Assembly (NCBI GenBank): GCA_965216565.1
Contig: OZ244170.1
Span: 1,536,001 to 1,600,000 of the forward strand
Length of the DNA stretch: 64,000 bases
Direction: 5' to 3'
Origin: Bythopirellula sp.
GTDB lineage: Bacteria; Planctomycetota; Planctomycetia; Pirellulales; Lacipirellulaceae
The translations under genes were made by a program, and so were the position numbers. Below, piece by piece: positions 29,741 to 40,534 of the stretch. Position 1 is the first letter of the stretch. Each line of letters begins with the position of its first letter. A model generated the notes under the pieces. The model saw only the letters and a program-made list of their open reading frames with translations. It did not search any database and had not been told where the DNA came from.

Positions 29741-32416
29741 ATGTTTTATTCTCGACTTCATGATACCAAATCTTTCGCTCTCCGTGCCATTCGTGCGATC
29801 TTGCCAATTCTTGCCATTTCTTTGGTAAGTAGCGAACACACATGCGCTGCCCCACAGGTGGAGGCCGTGGCCGGTGAGCCCTTTGGCGTGGGCAAAGTCA
29901 CAATCGACGTCCTCCGCGGCGAACCCTCCATTCCACTCAGCGACGAGCGTTTCACCATTTGGCAAGAGGCCAGCAGAGCCATGTACCCCGTGGTCAAGCA
30001 AGAGCCAGCTAAACGACTCCTTCGCAGGGTGCTCTCGATCGAGTCTCCCCGCAAGGTCACCGTCTATTTTCTGTTCCAAGGCAATGAGCCATTCGATCTG
30101 TCGGTGTTCTCGCCAATCGAACAGGCAGTGCGCATCCAGCCACAAATCAATCCAGAACGTCACCGCAATATGCTCAACGATTGGTGGCAAGCCTACTCAG
30201 GACGATGGAATACGCTCTGCTCCGACCCACAATTCCCACCCATGGCTGAGAATTTCCTGGTCGCATCATTAGGTCGGCGCCTAAACCTCGATTTGGCCGC
30301 TTCCGAACGCGGACTCTTGAAGAAGAAGCGAGGCAAGACCACGGCCCTAGGTGAACTATTTGCCAGCGAATCGCATTTACTGAAGCTCGATCGGGAGAAG
30401 ATTCTGAATCCTACGATACCCACCGAAGAGCGAGTACCGCTACCCGCCACTCCGGTGTGGGAAGATCTAGCCATCGACGACATGCAATTCGTGGACGTTG
30501 CGATTGAACCTATCGCAACACGCGTCCCTGAAGAGTGCTTTTATCTTCGCTTCGGCAAGTTTCTCAATTATCTTTGGTTTCGAGACCTAAGCGCAAAATG
30601 GCAAGGCGATTTGCAAAACATGGTTCTTCGCCGTGCCGTCGATCGCGCCGCCGATCAACGCACTCAGCAGCAACTGTCGCTCAAATACAACGCCATGGCG
30701 AAGATTCTTGGCCCACAGGTGGTGGAAGACCTGGCCATCGTTGGGCTCGATACGAACACAACGCAGGGCGCAGCGATCGGCGTTTTGATGCATGCCAAGA
30801 ACAACTTCTTGCTCAGCCAAGACATGATGCGACAACGTCGCCGGTCTCTTTCTACGTTCTCCGACGCCAAGGAAACGACAGTCAAGATCGCCGAACAAGA
30901 AGTATCGCTCATCGCAACACCCGGAGGAGAAGTCCGATCGTATTATGTGCAACAAGGCGATTTTCACCTAGTTTCGACTTCCGCTACCCTCGTGGAACGA
31001 TTTATTGAGGCAGGGCAGGGCGATCGTGCAATGGCCGCGCTCCCCAGTTTTCTACAAGCTAGAAAGCAATTGACCATCGCTCAGGACGACACAGTCTTTG
31101 TCTTCGTGCCGGAGAAGTTTTTCGAGAATCTCTGCTCGCCGCACTACTTTATCGAAAATGCACGTCGAATTAGCAGTGCTCGCGAGCCACTGCTCTTGGA
31201 ATTGGCTAGCCTGGCTGCCGAGACCGAGAATTCACTGGACGTCGACCTCATGACCAGTGGCATTCTGCCTGCCGGGTTTGGCACGCGCGTCGATGGCAGC
31301 CAGCTCGACGTTATTGACGATAAATTGACCGACTCTCGCCGGGGCACACCTGGATTCTTCGTTCCCATTGCCGACATGCAGGTGGAGGATGTTTCTCAGG
31401 AGGAAGCTTCCGCCTATCAAGATTTCATCACTCGTTTTCGATCCGAGATCGGACGAATGCCACCAGTGGCTGTCGCCGTGAAACGTCAACCCGTGGTAGG
31501 CGACCAAGTCACGATTTCATTCGACGCGTTGGTCCAACCAACGACTGGCACGAAGTTGGAGAACTTAAAAGAATATTTGGGCGAGGCATCCTCCCAACGC
31601 TTGCAGCCGGTGGAGGGAAATATCGCTTCGCTCGAGGCAGCGGTCAAAATGAAGCTTCCCTTCGGTGACGGCACCGAAAAGGCCTTTCATCTCTTCGGCG
31701 GCTTGCGGGACTATCTCTCGCCGCTGGCTGTCAAACAGGGCAAGCTCATGCCGGGCTCAGGCCTGACGGAACTTGTGCGGGGCTACGTCGGCGCTTGGCC
31801 GCGCCCTGGCCTTCTGGATTCACTACTGGGCGGTACCCAACCCGTTCCTGGAGAGCCACAGCGTGTGAACCAACCCTTGGTTGGTGATATTTGGCTCGAT
31901 AGCGAAGACGATTTGGCATTGATCTCCTTCAAGCCCGAGGTGATCGATCAGGTACGTCCACAGCTTGCCAAGACAGAAGCAGATCGGCCCGCACAGGTAT
32001 GGATGTCGATTGACGACCTCACCGGAAAACAGTTTGCCGGCACGGTAAGCGCCCTCGGCTATATGCGAGCCCGCGAAACTTCTGTAGCCGCCAGTCGGAT
32101 GATGAACTCCCTCGCCAACCAATTCCGCATCGGACGACCGGAGTGCCGCGACATTGCCGAGCGCCTCGTCGACGGGACTTTCGTCTGTCCCTTAGGCGGT
32201 GAGTATCAACTGCTTGCACCAGAACGTGATCTAGAAGTGTGGGCCTCGTCCGCGGTGACACCCGAAAATCGATTCTTGCTTACCGAAGTCCCCGAGGATT
32301 TTCAGCTGCCCCTCTTGCAATGGTTTCGTGGTGTGAACGGCGATTTGAGCTACGTGGAAGACGCACTTTCAATTCATCTCGAACTCAACTTGGCAGCCGA
32401 TTCGGTGCCCCAATGA
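29741..32416 (+). CDS. Large exported hypothetical protein
   Basis: 891-aa ORF with a signal-peptide-like N-terminus and no recognised catalytic motif. Confidence 0.75.
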   Translation: MFYSRLHDTKSFALRAIRAILPILAISLVSSEHTCAAPQVEAVAGEPFGVGKVTIDVLRGEPSIPLSDERFTIWQEASRAMYPVVKQEPAKRLLRRVLSIESPRKVTVYFLFQGNEPFDLSVFSPIEQAVRIQPQINPERHRNMLNDWWQAYSGRWNTLCSDPQFPPMAENFLVASLGRRLNLDLAASERGLLKKKRGKTTALGELFASESHLLKLDREKILNPTIPTEERVPLPATPVWEDLAIDDMQFVDVAIEPIATRVPEECFYLRFGKFLNYLWFRDLSAKWQGDLQNMVLRRAVDRAADQRTQQQLSLKYNAMAKILGPQVVEDLAIVGLDTNTTQGAAIGVLMHAKNNFLLSQDMMRQRRRSLSTFSDAKETTVKIAEQEVSLIATPGGEVRSYYVQQGDFHLVSTSATLVERFIEAGQGDRAMAALPSFLQARKQLTIAQDDTVFVFVPEKFFENLCSPHYFIENARRISSAREPLLLELASLAAETENSLDVDLMTSGILPAGFGTRVDGSQLDVIDDKLTDSRRGTPGFFVPIADMQVEDVSQEEASAYQDFITRFRSEIGRMPPVAVAVKRQPVVGDQVTISFDALVQPTTGTKLENLKEYLGEASSQRLQPVEGNIASLEAAVKMKLPFGDGTEKAFHLFGGLRDYLSPLAVKQGKLMPGSGLTELVRGYVGAWPRPGLLDSLLGGTQPVPGEPQRVNQPLVGDIWLDSEDDLALISFKPEVIDQVRPQLAKTEADRPAQVWMSIDDLTGKQFAGTVSALGYMRARETSVAASRMMNSLANQFRIGRPECRDIAERLVDGTFVCPLGGEYQLLAPERDLEVWASSAVTPENRFLLTEVPEDFQLPLLQWFRGVNGDLSYVEDALSIHLELNLAADSVPQ

Positions 32417-32895
32417 GCAAGCCGCCCCGTTACAGTAATCGCGATTTCCCGCCCTACACCTACGTCCCCGGCAAGCAACCGCACCCGATTAGCGACCCCC
32501 GCGGCCACATGCACGGGCACGAAGCCCCCGATCCGCCGCCACTAGATCCCGAGCAGTGGAACCAGTCCGCAAGCTACCTCTTCGCGGTCGACCTATTCAA
32601 CCACGGATTCTATTGGGAAGCCCACGAAGTTTGGGAGTCGCTCTGGATTGCCGCCGGCCGTGCGGGCATTCTGGCCGACTTTCTCAAAGGGCTCATCAAA
32701 CTCGCCGCGGCAGGAGTAAAGGAACTGGAGGGAAATCCCACGGGCATCGACCGCCATCGATCGCGAGCCCTTGAGCTCTTAAGCGATACCTCTGCAAATT
32801 CTCAGTCCTACGGTGGACTGCACTTGCCAGCACTCCTGACCCAAGTGCAAAGAAAACAAAAAATTTCTGAGATCGCCCTCACATTAGGCGAGTAA
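32413..32895 (+). CDS. DUF309 domain protein
   Basis: Motifs PPYTYVPG..PHP and LFNHGFYWEAHEVWESLW..LKGLI. ATGA overlap with the upstream gene. Confidence 0.85.
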   Translation: MSKPPRYSNRDFPPYTYVPGKQPHPISDPRGHMHGHEAPDPPPLDPEQWNQSASYLFAVDLFNHGFYWEAHEVWESLWIAAGRAGILADFLKGLIKLAAAGVKELEGNPTGIDRHRSRALELLSDTSANSQSYGGLHLPALLTQVQRKQKISEIALTLGE

Positions 32896-33114: not shown

Positions 33115-35181
33115 ATGAAGAAGAAACGTCGACAGCGGAAAAACAAGAACAAGAAACCGGCTCATGCGAAGATGGGAGCCGCTCAGAAGCCTGATGCCGA
33201 GGCTCGATCGGCCGCTGGAAAGAAGGGCCCTGGGTTAGTCATGTTTGCGGGACTGCTGGCCGTGGCACTCGCTATCGCTTTTTATGTGGTGCGCTCGTCT
33301 GAGACTCCACAAGAGACAGACGACCAGCAGGCTGTACTTGCTCCCAGCGAAATCGATTCCTCAGAGAAGGCGGCCCGAGTACCGCTCAGGCAGACTTCTT
33401 CCTGGACAGAGCTCGACGATCCTGCCAGCGATGGCTGGGATACCGAAGTGTTTGCTGAGAAAGCAAAAAAGCAGCTGGTAGCTCTTGGGAAAATAATGGT
33501 GGATGTCGAGGAGGTCGACGCAGCCGATGTGAAAAAACTTATCGCCAAGGAATTCGCTTGCGAACCACTACGGCCTGCTAATCTGGTTGCCGTCCACGAC
33601 GATCCCCACTTGAAGATCGAGCGTGCCCCCTCCTCGTCATCTGGCCTAAGTTCCCTGGACCAGTTGCCAGAATCGGAAGAGCAGAAGTATCACGGGGCCG
33701 ACGGACTTGTGCAAGCACTGCGCGATGCTGCGGCTTCCTTTGCAGAAGCCGAGGATTTGCGATTTGAAGTCAAGATATTTCGAGTCTTTCCCGCCCCGGG
33801 CAAAGTGACCACACGCCAGTACTTTTCCATTACTGGCCATACTGAGTCGGGTACATTGGAACAGCACGCAACCTGGGACATCGGTTGGGAAGTAGGGACA
33901 GGCAAATCAAAACCCCATCTCCAGTGGATCCGCGTAGAAGAATTCGAACAATCGGAAAGTCGCAATGCCGAGGAGACTCTTTTTGCCGACTGTACCGAGT
34001 CTGTTCTGGGTGGCAACGATTGCTACACGGAGCAGTTTTTGCGCGGCATGAACTATTGGTACGAGCGAATTCAAGACCGAAGTCCGTTCGGTTTGTTCGC
34101 AAACCCTGGGTTGGCGGTGGGAGATGTGAATGGTGACGGGCTGGACGACCTATACGTCTGTCAGGAGGCCGGTCTCCCGAATCGGCTGTTCGTCCAAAAT
34201 CCTGATGGCTCAGCAACCGATCAGTCGACCTCTTGGGGAGTCGATTGGCTGGAGTCATCTCGGAGCGCGCTCTTGGTCGATTTGGACAACGATTCCGACC
34301 AGGATTTGGTAGTGGCGATTCTTGGTGGAGTGGTCGTGGCTGAGAACAACGGACAAGGGCAATTTCAAATACGAGACGTACTGGCGACCTGCGACGACAC
34401 CATGTCTCTAACTGCGGTTGACTACGACATGGATGGCCGCCTCGATATCTATGTCTGTGCCTATCATCAGAACAAATCACTGGACTCCACTGAACTTACG
34501 GGCATGCCGGGTGCCGCGGAGGGTTTTGTTGTGCATGATGCGAACAATGGAGGAAATAACAGCCTCTTTCGCAATCTGATTTCTAAACAGGGTGAATGGC
34601 AGTTTGAAGACGTTACCAAAGAAGTTGGACTAGACGAGAAAAACTATCGCTGGAGTCTCGCCGCGGCTTGGGACGACTACGACAAGGACGGCGACCAAGA
34701 TCTTTACGTCGCCAACGACTACGGACGCGACCATTTCTATCGCAACGACCTTCTCGGTTCGTCCTCCTCCGATCAGGAACAGAATACGGGGCCGCAGTTC
34801 GTCGACATTTCCGATCTCGCCCACGTAGAAGACAGTGCCACGGGTATGTCGATTACCTGGGGCGATTACGATCGCGATGGATGGATGGACGCCTTGGTCA
34901 GCAATATGTGGTCCTCTGCCGGCCAGCGCGTAACATATCAAAACAATTTCAAGCCCGATGCACCGCAAGACATCAAAAATAGGTATCAACGTCAGGCTAG
35001 GGGCAACACGCTGCTGAAGAATCAAGGCGATGGAACCTTTAGCGACCTCAGCGGCCCAGCTGGAATAGAAATGGGACGCTGGGCTTGGGGTTCGCGGTTT
35101 GCGGATCTTAACAACGATGGCTGGGAAGACCTGTTTGTTTCGAACGGATACATCACGGCAGACGACACTGGGGACTTGTGA
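33115..35181 (+). CDS. FG-GAP/VCBS-repeat (CRTAC1-like) protein, N-terminal part; probably continues through the in-frame TGA to 37707
   Basis: Basic tail plus a TM anchor. Repeats GDVNGDGLDD, DLDNDSDQD, DYDMDGRLD, DYDKDGDQD, DYDRDGWMD and DLNNDGWED. It ends mid-propeller at DDTGDL-TGA. Confidence 0.85.
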   Translation: MKKKRRQRKNKNKKPAHAKMGAAQKPDAEARSAAGKKGPGLVMFAGLLAVALAIAFYVVRSSETPQETDDQQAVLAPSEIDSSEKAARVPLRQTSSWTELDDPASDGWDTEVFAEKAKKQLVALGKIMVDVEEVDAADVKKLIAKEFACEPLRPANLVAVHDDPHLKIERAPSSSSGLSSLDQLPESEEQKYHGADGLVQALRDAAASFAEAEDLRFEVKIFRVFPAPGKVTTRQYFSITGHTESGTLEQHATWDIGWEVGTGKSKPHLQWIRVEEFEQSESRNAEETLFADCTESVLGGNDCYTEQFLRGMNYWYERIQDRSPFGLFANPGLAVGDVNGDGLDDLYVCQEAGLPNRLFVQNPDGSATDQSTSWGVDWLESSRSALLVDLDNDSDQDLVVAILGGVVVAENNGQGQFQIRDVLATCDDTMSLTAVDYDMDGRLDIYVCAYHQNKSLDSTELTGMPGAAEGFVVHDANNGGNNSLFRNLISKQGEWQFEDVTKEVGLDEKNYRWSLAAAWDDYDKDGDQDLYVANDYGRDHFYRNDLLGSSSSDQEQNTGPQFVDISDLAHVEDSATGMSITWGDYDRDGWMDALVSNMWSSAGQRVTYQNNFKPDAPQDIKNRYQRQARGNTLLKNQGDGTFSDLSGPAGIEMGRWAWGSRFADLNNDGWEDLFVSNGYITADDTGDL

Positions 35182-35219
35182 AGTTTCTGGTGGCGGCAGG
35201 TCGTGTCGCATGGAATCAC
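35179..35219 (+). promoter_or_regulatory. In-frame UGA plus candidate bacterial SECIS hairpin
   Basis: TGA, then 11 nt, then stem GCGGCA/TGTCGC around loop GGTCG. The lower stem TTCTG/TGGAA and GTGA/TCAC can extend it. Confidence 0.65.
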
Positions 35220-37707
35220 GGATAGCGAAGCGAGTGCCACCGATGCGCTTGAGCACGCTGGGACTGCGCTGACAAACATGATGAGAGGGGGTCGCTCCTT
35301 TAGCGGAAACGAGCGGCACTGTTGTTTTCTCAACACGGGCGGAGAGCCGAACGCGGAGGGACGTTTCGCAAACATCTCCGCGGTCAGCGGTCTTGACTAT
35401 CCCGACGATGGTCGGGCGGTGGCTTTAGTTGATTGGGATCACGATGGCAGACAGGACATGTGGATTTCTAATCGCAATGCCCCTCGTCTCCGACTCATGC
35501 GTAACGAAGTGCCAGGCGAGAATCATTTCCTGGCGCTTCGTCTGGAAGGCAATGGAACAGACACCAATCGCGATGGCATCGGAGCTCGAGTAGAAATCAT
35601 TCTAAGACAAGTTGACGTAGCCGCTCCTGAATCACAGGCGGGCAAGCAGAAACCACAAGTTAAGACTCTGCGTGCCGGAGAAGGGTTGTTAGCCCAATCA
35701 AGCAAATGGCTGCACTTTGGCTTGGGGCAGGCTGACACCATCGAAAGTGTGACCGTCTATTGGCCGGGCGGCGAAGCCGAGCAATTTATCGGTTTCGAAG
35801 CTGACCATCGGTACCGGCTCGTCCAAGGTTCGGCCACAGCTCAGGACGCAGCAATGCCTGCTCGCGCGACTAAGCTTGAACGTTCCAACCAAAATGTTCC
35901 CCCCGCGTCGCAGGTTGCCCGAATTCGGATGGTGCAGTTGTTGACGGTACCGGAATCTCCCTATCAAAGCTTCGATGGACGGCGACGCAAACTCCCGACT
36001 AAGCAAGGAGAATTGCTACTGGTAAACCTGTGGGCCAGTTGGTGCCGCCCCTGTTTAGCTGAACTCACCGAGTTTTCTAATCGCTACGAAGAGCTACAGA
36101 ACGAGGGAATCGAGGTTCTTGCGCTTACGGTCGAAGGTCTTAAGGGAGAAAAAGAAGCAGCCAAGCAAGCGGCAAACCTCGCCGCCAACCGAAAGTTTCC
36201 GTTTCTGGTGGGACAGGCAAGCTCAACATTACTCGCAGATTTCAATTACCTCCATAGTCTTCAGATTCCACTGCTTCGAGAACTGCCGCTGCCATGTAGT
36301 TTCCTGATTGATCGAGAAGGTCGTTTAGCTGCAATCTACAAAGGCCCCGTGTCGGTTGATGCATTACTGGAAGACACTTCCTACAGTAAAGACAGTCGAG
36401 CCGAACGACAATTGCGGTCCGCTTCCATGGCCGGCCAATCGATTCAGCACCCACTCGTAGAACAAGTAGAAGACAATTCAGGCGTGTCGCTTCGTTTTCT
36501 GCTCGCAGAGTATCTTCAACATTCCGGACGCAACGACCAGGCGGCCCAGCAATACGCGGACGTGATTAAGCTCAAGCCCGACAACTCGGGTGCCCATAAT
36601 AACTTGGGTAGCACCCTCTTAGAGCTTGGAAAAGTTGAAGAAGCCGTTAAACATCTTCGGCGTGCCCTCGAACTCAATCCCGAACACCCAGGAGCCCACA
36701 GCAACCTGGCAAACGCGTTACAACGCCAAGGGAAGTCGGAAGACGCAATCGAGCATTTACAACAAGCAATAGAGGACGATCCCGATTTCGCGCAGGCTCA
36801 CTACAACCTGGGAAACACACTCTTGCTACAAGGAAAGGCCGAAGAAGCTTCTCCGCATTACGAGCGAGCCCTTGAGATCGACCCAGACTACGCCCATGCC
36901 CACAGCAATCTGGGGATCGCTTTGCAGCGTCAGGGCAAGATTGAAGAAGCTATCGAACACTATCGGCGTGCACTGCAGATCGAACCAGATTACGCGGACG
37001 CGCATTACAACCTGGGAATTGTTCTCCGAGGTCAGGGGAATACCTCAGAAGCGATCAAACATTACCAACAAGTCGTAAGGATCAAACCCAATTACGCTCA
37101 GGCACACAACAACTTAGGGAACGCAATCCAAGCGGAAGGGAAACTTGAAGAATCCATCACGCATTACCAACGTGCCATTCGGATCAAACCCGATTTCGCC
37201 GAAGCTTATAACAACCTGGGCAATGCGCTACTGGGGCAAAAGAAGATCGCAGAGGCGATCAAGTGCTATCAACAAGCTCTAAAGATCCAACCCAGCTACC
37301 CACAAGCGCACACCAGTCTAGCAGTCGCGTATCAAGCTCGCGGTGATGTCCCCAAAGCTATCCAGCACTACAAGCAAGCGCTCGTTCTAAATCGGGACAA
37401 CCCCATGGCTCTGAACAACCTGGCATGGATTCTGGCAACACATTCAGATTCCAAATTACGCAATGGCTCTCAGGCCGTCATGCTAGCCGAGTATTGTTGT
37501 GGACTGGAGGGACTGCGGGTGTTTGCTACGCTCGACACGCTGTCCGCCGCTTACGCAGAGGCAGGCCGTTTTGAAGAAGCAGTTGAAGCCGCCACCGAGG
37601 CGATCGAAGGAGCAACCGCCGCAGGAAACGAAGAAGTAGCCCAAGCGCTTCGCAAGCGATTAGAGCTGTACCGTCAGGGCACTCCCTATCGAGAACCGAA
37701 GAAATGA
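35203..37707 (+). CDS. Last FG-GAP blade + ASPIC/UnbV + TlpA-like thioredoxin (WCRPC) + TPR array; C-terminal part of the same frame as 33115
   Basis: DWDHDGRQD, NHFLALRLEG..NRDGIGARV, LHFGLG..V.WPGG, VNLWASWCRPC and about nine 34-aa TPRs (AHNNLG/AHYNLG). No signal peptide of its own. Confidence 0.85.
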   Translation: MSHGITDSEASATDALEHAGTALTNMMRGGRSFSGNERHCCFLNTGGEPNAEGRFANISAVSGLDYPDDGRAVALVDWDHDGRQDMWISNRNAPRLRLMRNEVPGENHFLALRLEGNGTDTNRDGIGARVEIILRQVDVAAPESQAGKQKPQVKTLRAGEGLLAQSSKWLHFGLGQADTIESVTVYWPGGEAEQFIGFEADHRYRLVQGSATAQDAAMPARATKLERSNQNVPPASQVARIRMVQLLTVPESPYQSFDGRRRKLPTKQGELLLVNLWASWCRPCLAELTEFSNRYEELQNEGIEVLALTVEGLKGEKEAAKQAANLAANRKFPFLVGQASSTLLADFNYLHSLQIPLLRELPLPCSFLIDREGRLAAIYKGPVSVDALLEDTSYSKDSRAERQLRSASMAGQSIQHPLVEQVEDNSGVSLRFLLAEYLQHSGRNDQAAQQYADVIKLKPDNSGAHNNLGSTLLELGKVEEAVKHLRRALELNPEHPGAHSNLANALQRQGKSEDAIEHLQQAIEDDPDFAQAHYNLGNTLLLQGKAEEASPHYERALEIDPDYAHAHSNLGIALQRQGKIEEAIEHYRRALQIEPDYADAHYNLGIVLRGQGNTSEAIKHYQQVVRIKPNYAQAHNNLGNAIQAEGKLEESITHYQRAIRIKPDFAEAYNNLGNALLGQKKIAEAIKCYQQALKIQPSYPQAHTSLAVAYQARGDVPKAIQHYKQALVLNRDNPMALNNLAWILATHSDSKLRNGSQAVMLAEYCCGLEGLRVFATLDTLSAAYAEAGRFEEAVEAATEAIEGATAAGNEEVAQALRKRLELYRQGTPYREPKK

Positions 37708-38416: not shown

Positions 38417-40111
38417 ATGGCAACAAGCATAGAGAACAATCCTTTCTTGGACCAATTCGCAGACCTGAGCTCATTACCAGGTTTTCAACCGCAAGGACTT
38501 TGTCACTTCGACAAGGACCATCGGATCGTGGTGATGAACCGGCAATTTCAAACGCTGTACGGGTTACCCGAGAGTCTGCTCAAGCCGGGCACACATCGGG
38601 ATGAAGTCATCTCAGCAATTGAAGATGCCACCTTGCGTGATTTACTGACGGACGTAACGTCCAACCCATGCGGATTCGGATCGACGAATCGGGTTTGGCA
38701 AACTGAACAAGGACGGCTGATTGCCGTCTCTTGCGAACTCTTGCCCGATGGCAGTTACACAACCTTGCATGAAGACATCACCACGTCGAATCAAGAGAAT
38801 GCGAAATACGCTAGACTTGCGACTCATGACCCTTTGACAGGATTACTCAACCGCCAGGCGTTTGACGATGAATTGCAACGGGTGCTTTCGCAAAACGAGA
38901 GCATGAAAGAACATGCCCTGCTGTACATCGACCTCGACCGATTCAAAATAGTTAACGACACTCTCGGTCACCCCATCGGCGATCAAGCACTGATAGCGAT
39001 TACCGAGCGGATTCGAAATGTCATCCGGTCTGAAGACAAGCTTGCCCGACTGGGGGGCGATGAGTTTGCGTTGCTGCAGGTGGAGGCGCAACAACCAGAT
39101 GCATCACGCTCTGCTGCCCGCCGGATTATTGATACCGTCGCTCAACCTCTCTCAATCAGTGGACACTCCGTGAATCTCGGTGCCAGCGTGGGCATAGCTA
39201 TCGCCCCCTTCGACGCTGATAACGCAGAGCTGCTGCTGCAGAATGCCGACCTGGCTCTCTACCGCGCGAAGCACGATGGCCGCAACACATTGCGTTACTT
39301 CGAGCCAGAAATGAGCAGACGTCTAGTCTTACGGAGAAAACTGGAATGCGAGCTTCGTTCGGCAATTGAGGCGGGTCAGTTCGAAATGCTCTACCAGCCC
39401 GTAATGAACCTTAACTCGCAGACAATCGAGTGCGTGGAAGGGCTCGTTCGGTGGCAGCATCCCGAGCTAGGGCTCGTCTCGCCCGACGACTTCATACCTC
39501 TCGCTGAAGAGACTGGCTTAATCAATCCACTCGGTGAATGGGTTCTCCGGCAAGTTTGTCGAGAAGCCGCTGAATGGGACGAAGGGATTCGCGTAGCGGT
39601 TAATGTATCTCCTGTCCAGCTTCGTTGTCGGATGTTTGCGTCGACTGTACAGAACATTCTCCAGGAAACGGGACTCGATCCTTCGCGCCTCGAAGTGGAG
39701 ATTACCGAAACAGCGCTGGTGGCAGATATAGAATTGACGATCGCAATCCTTACGGAGTTGCGTCAATTCGGAGTAAAAGTCGCCATGGACGATTTTGGCA
39801 CGGGCTACTCCTCGATCAGCTATTTGCGACGCTTTCCGTTCGACAAAATTAAGATCGACCGATCTTTTGTTTCCGGAGTAGATGCCGATCCCGAAGCTGC
39901 TGCTCTGATAAAGATGATCGCTGCTTTGGGGGTAAGCCTGGCGGTCTCGACAACCGCCGAAGGTGTCGAAACAGATTCCGAATTGGATTTGGTTCGTCAA
40001 GCAGGTTGCACCCACATCCAGGGGTATCATCTAAGCAAACCTGTCAACGCGGGAGCAATCGTCGCTCTCCTGGAATCAAACAAAGATGACAAGACTTACT
40101 TGGGAGAATAA
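38417..40111 (+). CDS. PAS-like + GGDEF + EAL bifunctional c-di-GMP enzyme
   Basis: Motifs HEDIT, HDPLTGLLNR, DLDRFK, RLGGDEF, YQP, EGLVRW, AVNVS, EVEITE, DDFGTGYSS, KIDRSF, AEGVET and QGY. Confidence 0.95.
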   Translation: MATSIENNPFLDQFADLSSLPGFQPQGLCHFDKDHRIVVMNRQFQTLYGLPESLLKPGTHRDEVISAIEDATLRDLLTDVTSNPCGFGSTNRVWQTEQGRLIAVSCELLPDGSYTTLHEDITTSNQENAKYARLATHDPLTGLLNRQAFDDELQRVLSQNESMKEHALLYIDLDRFKIVNDTLGHPIGDQALIAITERIRNVIRSEDKLARLGGDEFALLQVEAQQPDASRSAARRIIDTVAQPLSISGHSVNLGASVGIAIAPFDADNAELLLQNADLALYRAKHDGRNTLRYFEPEMSRRLVLRRKLECELRSAIEAGQFEMLYQPVMNLNSQTIECVEGLVRWQHPELGLVSPDDFIPLAEETGLINPLGEWVLRQVCREAAEWDEGIRVAVNVSPVQLRCRMFASTVQNILQETGLDPSRLEVEITETALVADIELTIAILTELRQFGVKVAMDDFGTGYSSISYLRRFPFDKIKIDRSFVSGVDADPEAAALIKMIAALGVSLAVSTTAEGVETDSELDLVRQAGCTHIQGYHLSKPVNAGAIVALLESNKDDKTYLGE

Positions 40112-40114
40112 CAA

Positions 40115-40534
40115 ATGTTTCGACGATTACTTTACACCAGCCATGCGGCAGAAGGCGTGGATTCAAGACAGGTCTTCGATATCATACGAACATCCCACAA
40201 TCGCAATAGCCGTGCTGGTCTGACTGGAGGCCTACTATTCGTGGACGGCTATTTCTATCAGTTGTTGGAAGGACTGCGGGGCGCTGTCGAGCAAAGGTAC
40301 GATCGAATTGCGGCGGACCCAAGGCACCACAGTGTTGAGCTGCGTCTCGACGAGACGGCTGACGAGCCGATCTTCGCCAATGACTGGATGGCACTTCGCG
40401 ATGCTTCTCAAATCGACGATTCGATTCTAGCCCATTTTGGTTGTTCACCAGGGTCGCCACCCGAAGCCATGCAAGACGACCAAGTGTTTGAGTTCTTGCT
40501 CACCTGCTTTGAGAAGGAAATAGTTCATTGCTGA
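40115..40534 (+). CDS. Stand-alone BLUF (blue-light FAD) photoreceptor
   Basis: Motifs LLYTS, N..AGLTGGL, FYQLLEG, I.ADPRH and F..DWM. It starts 3 nt after the GGDEF-EAL stop. Confidence 0.9.
   Translation: MFRRLLYTSHAAEGVDSRQVFDIIRTSHNRNSRAGLTGGLLFVDGYFYQLLEGLRGAVEQRYDRIAADPRHHSVELRLDETADEPIFANDWMALRDASQIDDSILAHFGCSPGSPPEAMQDDQVFEFLLTCFEKEIVHC

Follow-up and report, generated by a model that had tools for sequence, protein, structure and literature searches.

The locus at 33115-37707 raises the question of whether two neighbouring open reading frames (ORFs), parted by one TGA codon, encode two proteins or a single protein in which the TGA is read as an amino acid, and, if the latter, which amino acid is inserted. 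All positions refer to the window (the whole 64,000-nucleotide stretch of Bythopirellula sp. DNA that was analysed) unless a contig is named.

An in-frame TGA within a predicted CRTAC1-like protein

The ORFs 33115-35181 (688 aa) and 35203-37707 (834 aa, GTG start) lie in the same frame, and translation of 33115-37707 gives 1530 residues with the TGA at 35179-35181 (codon 689) as the sole internal stop, in the peptide context DTGDL*SFWWRQVVSHG; the original prediction had described such an in-frame pair, split by this single TGA, with a joint product of about 1530 aa, and retranslation agrees with it exactly. Pfam matches in the read-through product are FG-GAP repeats, UnbV_ASPIC (821-900), an AhpC-TSA/thioredoxin-like domain (951-1073) and many TPRs, so that an FG-GAP propeller is followed by PF07593, the arrangement that defines the CRTAC1/ASPIC-UnbV family. 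The thioredoxin and TPR parts had been absent from the earlier description. The features, in the domain order anchor, unnamed N-domain, FG-GAP propeller, ASPIC/UnbV, TlpA-like thioredoxin and TPR, are as follows.

33115..37707, + strand: gene for a predicted 1530-aa membrane-anchored exported selenoprotein (translation, Pfam, homologues, AlphaFold2 model)
33235..33291, + strand: hydrophobic stretch (aa 41-59) behind a basic N-terminus, predicted to anchor the protein in the membrane or to direct its export (mean hydropathy 2.7)
33382..33948, + strand: N-terminal domain aa 90-278, of no named family (NCBIfam, Atlas)
33958..35832, + strand: CRTAC1-like unit (FG-GAP beta-propeller and ASPIC/UnbV), aa 282-906, with the TGA inside it (AlphaFold2 model, 9etn alignment)
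35179..35181, + strand: in-frame TGA, the candidate codon for Sec689, which opens the predicted helix aa 689-699 (translation, conservation, model)
35179..35286, + strand: predicted helical hairpin aa 689-724, inserted in the propeller (structure models)
35193..35209, + strand: SECIS-type hairpin within the ORF, 6-bp stem (35193-98 with 35204-09) and 5-nt loop GGUCG
35575..35814, + strand: ASPIC/UnbV domain PF07593, aa 821-900 (Pfam)
35965..36333, + strand: TlpA/ResA-like thioredoxin domain aa 951-1073 (Pfam, Foldseek, NCBIfam)
36043-36054, + strand: C977-x-x-C980 of the thioredoxin domain, an intact CxxC
36493..37623, + strand: TPR array, about aa 1127-1503 (Pfam)

An AlphaFold2 model of aa 279-1109, made from a 104-row alignment with the selenocysteine (Sec) entered as Cys, reached pLDDT 91.5 and pTM 0.94, and its residues 4-628 superimposed on CRTAC1 (9etn) with Z 42.9 and rmsd 2.3 over 465 aligned residues (Foldseek E 4e-28). 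As the model aligns to 9etn on both sides of codon 689, one fold is predicted to span the TGA. A total of 3056 uninterrupted proteins match aa 560-830, with the whole architecture common to most of the best 120, and the existence of thousands of uninterrupted full-length homologues shows that the two halves belong to one protein. On this comparative and modelling evidence the two ORFs are one gene, and the single polypeptide proposed for them in the original prediction is borne out by both the homologues and the predicted fold. Identity to CRTAC1 is 15-21% over the shared propeller and ASPIC/UnbV fold, to which the 1530-aa protein adds a membrane anchor, the N-domain, the helical hairpin bearing the predicted Sec, the thioredoxin domain and the TPRs. 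For the N-domain (aa 90-278) an NCBIfam search gave nothing over cut-off and the Atlas matches were unnamed hypothetical clusters (best score 0.94), while a hydrophobic segment of the kind seen here is present in 71 of the 95 TGA-bearing members with a complete upstream frame.

The TGA codon is genuine and is conserved in several phyla

The TGA was confirmed in other data: a separate study yielded a contig (run X5) that spans 34600-35505 and shows 8 differences, all of them outside the TGA; runs X1 and X4, which probably represent the source sample, were left out of this independent support. No RNA data set was among those listed for the sequence, a result that says nothing about expression. 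The related strain in run X5 also carries a 15-base in-frame insertion at 35650, in the UnbV linker. A protein collection holds two 688-aa products ending at codon 689 (the Logan one is probably the same record as the X5 contig), and the storage of this half as a finished protein means that the gene is indeed cut in two by annotation.

Both paralogs in the genome have a TGA at the same place, with 52-55% identity around the site, followed by the same 19 bases as in the 33115-37707 gene. In a sample from the same phylum, probably Planctomycetota, the family was found in 53 of 301 genomes and 97 of 106 matches had one TGA (its position being checked in the fetched loci); among 79 GTDB loci, labelled mostly Planctomycetota, Verrucomicrobiota and Acidobacteriota, TGA stood at 82 of 85 sites, the other three being Cys in a distant short paralog; and 40 of 50 matches had one TGA in a sample of 201 genomes around an Acidobacteriota MAG, a count from which two unpublished genomes were left out. 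When the codon aligned to position 689 was tabulated over 171 distinct sites, as had been proposed, TGA was found at 149, a sense codon at 22 and TAA or TAG at none, so that the TGA is conserved in several phyla. The original prediction would have been overturned by a TGA unique to this genome, and the opposite was found, the codon recurring in the two paralogs and at 149 distinct sites elsewhere. A nonsense mutation or sequencing error, making the locus a pseudogene, has next to no probability and is refuted by the same codon in three paralogs and at 149 distinct sites in other loci, and by the independent contig.

Some members are clustered or numerous: divergent TGA-bearing members lie in tandem, two to three within a few kb, at L184-L187 (genomes G286, G176, G290 and G229), and genome G200 has seven family matches. 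Two close homologues, L057 and L128, come from MAGs whose titles name Cryomorphaceae and Akkermansia muciniphila; they fall among sequences labelled Verrucomicrobiales, and their labels or bins may be wrong.

A rival reading is a conserved real stop separating two proteins, the second starting at the GTG eight codons on, whose halves then assemble. A GTG, TTG or ATG does stand at codon +7 or +8 in 129 of the 149 TGA sites and the 688-aa half is present in public collections, but 20 of the 149 sites lack any start among codons 1 to 12, neither TAA nor TAG ever takes the place of the TGA, and the amino acids of codons +1 to +4 are kept with synonymous variation (Ser as AGC in 69 and AGT in 65; Trp in 149/149). 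Moreover, the GTG sits in the 3' arm of the stem described below, and, as no export signal is present in the second half, the parts of a single fold would probably end up in different compartments. We thus regard a conserved real stop as very improbable.

A SECIS-type hairpin follows the TGA

Counting the T of the TGA as 1, bases 15-20 pair with bases 26-31 around the loop GGUCG. The bSECIS model of PMC13188914 describes a loop of 3-9 nt with G in its first two positions, a stem of 4-16 bp, a spacing of 16-37 nt and an MFE of at most -7.5; the hairpin at 35193..35209 has a 5-nt loop, 6 bp and a spacing of 17 nt after the UGA, and the first 50 nt after the TGA fold at -10.9 kcal/mol, all within that model. 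Over 83 distinct sequences 89% of cells pair, and two-sided changes were found in 30 cells compared to 9.0 in shuffles (0/500 shuffles reach this), with every slid register scoring lower, although the structure was derived from the same sequences and relatedness inflates such counts.

The full 6-bp stem is present at 123 of 149 TGA sites compared to 2 of 21 sense sites (L175 being dropped as misaligned), and this difference holds where the encoded peptide is identical (WRQVV: 81 of 89 TGA sites compared to 1 of 7 sense sites). A synonymous-recoding null gave the stem in 3.6% of cases, against 84% observed, and at 13 of the 149 TGA sites three positions or fewer are paired in this register. The 102 nt after the TGA fold no more stably than shuffles (z 0.58), so the hairpin is supported by comparison and not by energy, and an Rfam scan at the TGA site gave no SECIS-type match. 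In these alignments the hairpin covaries and is mostly lost once the TGA becomes a sense codon. The original prediction had pointed to a hairpin after the TGA as a reason for suspecting selenocysteine, and the bSECIS features, the covariation and the loss of the stem at sense sites all strengthen that reasoning.

Selenocysteine machinery and genome context

The genome was searched for selA, selB, selC and selD, a check proposed at the outset, and all are present: selA, selB and selD score over their cut-offs and tRNA-Sec gives 72.6 bits with Rfam, all in one cluster (C1:683.7-689.6 kb). In this cluster (G000:C1:683687-689624) selB-selA are on the minus strand, divergent from a 747-codon frame containing SelD; this SelD is a Cys form fused behind an extra N-terminal part, which we take to be oxidoreductase-like, and tRNA-Sec lies just after it.

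In the same-phylum sample selA was found in 49 of 49 TGA-carrying genomes compared to 172 of 252 others (221/301 in total), a difference whose Fisher test (p 7e-8) is overstated because kin are not independent. In the Acidobacteriota sample selA was found in 28 of 29 TGA carriers, against a background of 162/201, the exception (G386) having the TGA gene and selB with no selA found. The two genomes in which neither selA nor selB was found (G404 and G474) have sense codons at the site (Ala in one, Ser/Gln in the other), and of the sense-only Acidobacteriota carriers 7 of 9 still have selA. In genome G326 a family member (L166:6324-11340) lies 437 bases upstream of selA on the same strand, with no tRNA in the gap; it is a shorter form with propeller, UnbV and thioredoxin parts and no TPR.

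Readthrough of the UGA as Trp, Cys, Gly or another residue, by a variant code or by leaky suppression, would also yield the full-length protein, and the lack of a Cys-dominated class of homologues counts in its favour. Yet TGA ends 447 of the 1576 long open frames in the genome and is thus an ordinary stop there, and no tRNA other than tRNA-Sec has a UCA anticodon. With the agreement between the hairpin and the SelB-type model, and with selA or selB in the carriers, insertion of some other residue is highly unlikely. Selenocysteine at codon 689 is supported by the conserved TGA, the covarying SECIS-type hairpin, the complete Sec machinery and the co-occurrence with selA, and from this comparison the TGA at 35179-35181 is almost certainly read as selenocysteine, in line with the original prediction that codon 689 is recoded in this way within one polypeptide. 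SelB bound to the hairpin 17 nt downstream would bring Sec-tRNA to the UGA, and the product would be a 1530-aa selenoprotein, membrane-anchored and presumably exported, with its body outside the cytoplasm.

In an unbiased scan of 35,158 TGA codons in the genome for coding potential on both sides and a hairpin, which was not exhaustive, the three paralogs took the top places, with another FG-GAP gene in fourth. The scan also recovered a gene of known type, of the AhpC/TSA family (G000:C1:1637274, + strand), whose in-frame TGA lies in a UxxC motif with a hairpin and which served as a positive control. A Sec formate dehydrogenase was looked for in the genome and was not found.

No conserved gene neighbourhood was found across the 79 GTDB loci, where the biggest clusters turned out to be alternative frames of this same gene and the rest were limited to at most 7 close relatives. 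In the window the gene is preceded on the + strand by an 891-aa protein with no Pfam match (29741-32416) and a DUF309 protein (32239-32895), and is followed by a PAS-GGDEF-EAL gene (38417-40534, + strand) and then by a 139-aa protein, presumably a BLUF light-sensor domain.

Sense-codon homologues and the rarity of cysteine

At the Sec position the best 120 of the 3056 uninterrupted homologues, a sample in which one clade predominates, have Asn in 51, Ala in 21, Ser in 20, Gly in 15, Glu in 4, Cys in 3 (P0003, P0023 and P0091), Asp in 2, His in 1 and Gln in 1, with 2 rows unaligned. Among the 22 sense sites Cys occurs at 3, all in the distant short paralog. These short paralogs (L101, L115 and L134) have about 200 aa after the site and no thioredoxin domain, carry Cys at the Sec position and adjoin TGA-bearing genes.

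Nearly all known selenoprotein families have Cys homologues at the Sec site. The original prediction had looked to a conserved TGA or to Cys in homologues for support: the TGA is conserved, and Cys does occur but is rare (3/120). This rarity may explain why screens for Cys/Sec pairs missed the family.

A FastTree tree of 281 rows was computed after removal of the site, the SECIS peptide and the thioredoxin domain, with L175, P0002, P0004, L138, L143 and fragments left out and the root not inferred. Sec changes state 13 times on it, and Sec forms are found on deep branches around groups with sense codons, a pattern in these sequences that fits repeated loss of Sec.

The thioredoxin domain and a possible redox function

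Of 139 scored Sec forms, 138 have an intact TlpA-like CxxC (the single Sec form with a degenerate CxxC being L032), as do 8 of 129 forms with neither Sec nor Cys and the one scored Cys form (1/1). Lineages that lost Sec recently tend to retain the CxxC, whereas it is gone after older losses. When kinship was taken into account on the FastTree tree, the link between Sec and CxxC came down to 9 independent pairs (4.2 in the same direction, 0 in the opposite one and 4.8 without a difference) and was not significant (median p 0.125). This retention of the CxxC in Sec forms, and its loss in most forms with neither Sec nor Cys, suggests a Sec/thiol redox module.

In the AlphaFold2 model the predicted Sec is at the start of the helix aa 689-699, within the helical hairpin that interrupts the propeller. 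Such a helix start favours an anionic selenolate, and it also tolerates capping residues, among them Asn, Ser, Asp and Gly. When the natural Cys homologue P0003 was modelled as two chains, its thioredoxin domain docked on the propeller with a score of 0.92 (best control 0.00), above a mark that 116 of 157 solved pairs and 2 of 215 mismatched pairs attain, though a pass was to be expected as propeller and thioredoxin are parts of one natural chain. The runs agreed in at least 96% of contacts, with partner pLDDT of at least 88, and the interface involves the second helix of the hairpin, a residue six positions ahead of the site and the segment that leads into the PLPTSF loop; the contacts listed for this complex model include neither the site itself (C637) nor the CxxC (C905/C908).

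A mechanism can be proposed in which the selenol at the helix start would react with an extracytoplasmic substrate (a disulfide, a peroxide or a metal), which would sit on a protein held by the propeller and the TPRs, and would then be re-reduced with help of the fused TlpA-like CxxC. Lineages that swapped Sec for a small helix-capping residue would keep the scaffold and later lose the CxxC. If Sec is indeed inserted, the models and the CxxC pattern make it somewhat probable that the protein is an exported Sec/thiol redox module recharged via its own CxxC.

It is also conceivable, albeit unlikely, that Sec is inserted and is not catalytic, the UGA and SECIS acting as a selenium-dependent switch for the full-length form, so that the UnbV, thioredoxin and TPR parts are made only when selenium is available and the residue merely caps the helix. 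The site is the first residue of a predicted helix and its replacements are mostly Asn, Ala, Ser, Gly, Glu and Asp, several of which commonly cap helices, with Cys rarely used, as such a switch would allow. However, a pure switch does not predict the near-constant presence of the CxxC in Sec forms and its near-constant loss elsewhere; Cys is found at the site in some homologues, P0003 among them with its CxxC preserved; and the truncated product would be an incomplete propeller. Overall, the sequence data are very probably explained by one gene with a SelB/SECIS-decoded UGA that encodes a 1530-aa anchored selenoprotein, with a redox module as its most likely function.

Relation to known systems

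Four ASPIC/UnbV FG-GAP selenoprotein candidates, from planctomycetes P1 and P2, are listed in Table S9 of Kim et al. 2016 (PMC4807772), and these very likely belong to the same family as the 33115-37707 gene, the two being set together by description and not by sequence. They fit the Gly/Ala/Ser/Asn clade of the present homologues. In that paper they appear as a table entry, the terms being absent from its main text and S2 Text, and no range, covariation, structure or thioredoxin link is given for them in these parts. Table 1 of the 2026 catalogue (PMC13188914) holds 119 families and no FG-GAP/ASPIC propeller. Term searches of the main texts of PMC13188914, PMC12013277 and PMC13326102, and of the supplements to the latter two, did not find the family, and a literature search by term for selenoprotein with ASPIC or UnbV gave no relevant paper among the titles and abstract starts listed. 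NCBIfam 20.0 has no model for the Sec region, aa 279-930 giving only a weak XAC2610 match below cut-off. The original prediction placed this fold outside the described bacterial selenoprotein families as far as was known, which stands as far as the 119 families of that table go, but candidates had already been flagged in Table S9 of PMC4807772.

Like the bSECIS genes of PMC13188914, the gene has a UGA, an in-ORF hairpin with G at the first loop positions, a 17-nt spacing and selA/B/C/D in the genome; unlike them, it has no CxxU or UxxC motif and its Cys homologues are a small minority. With TlpA/ResA it shares a thioredoxin fold with a WCxxC motif (C977/C980), a likeness at the domain level only, as the curated cut-offs of the TlpA/ResA equivalogs were missed (55.2 vs 170 and 52.9 vs 230 bits), but here the domain is fused inside a large protein and the predicted Sec lies about 290 residues from the CxxC rather than in it. 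Judged from its sequence, then, the gene behaves as an ordinary SelB/SECIS gene but falls outside every family in the catalogue and is an exception to the Sec/Cys rule.

A second FG-GAP family and wider implications

The second FG-GAP candidate (G000:C1:3110859-3109336, - strand; L197) is distinct from the gene described above, being a predicted lipoprotein with a TGA at 3110400 directly followed by Cys, and it lies next to a gene presumed to encode a DsbD N-terminal-type protein. Its family was found in 61 of the 301 same-phylum genomes, with one TGA in 82/82 matches and selA in 60 of the 61 carriers; 30/30 fetched loci keep the TGA-Cys and a 4-5 bp hairpin with compensatory changes, and an NCBIfam search of the candidate gave no family. 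Together the two FG-GAP families account for four of the five selenoprotein candidates in the genome.

It is quite possible, if somewhat short of an even chance, that FG-GAP beta-propellers are a major overlooked Sec scaffold in planctomycetes and relatives, with at least two exported families, and that in the 33115-37707 family Sec caps a helix, is redox-active, is recharged by the fused thioredoxin domain and is lost to Asn, Ser, Gly or Ala rather than to Cys. If this is true, screens requiring a Cys partner miss a whole class, and the Sec machinery is kept largely for the cell envelope.

With the family at 33115-37707 the bacterial selenoproteome would gain a large, multi-copy group of exported proteins whose fold lies outside those tabulated in the 2026 catalogue, and which breaks the working rule that Sec sites pair with Cys, the basis of most discovery screens. 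It would mean that many database entries are half-proteins, and would show what the Sec machinery may serve where a Sec formate dehydrogenase was not found and SelD is of the Cys type. As natural Sec, Cys and Asn/Ser forms of one scaffold would be available, the question of why Sec is kept would become testable.
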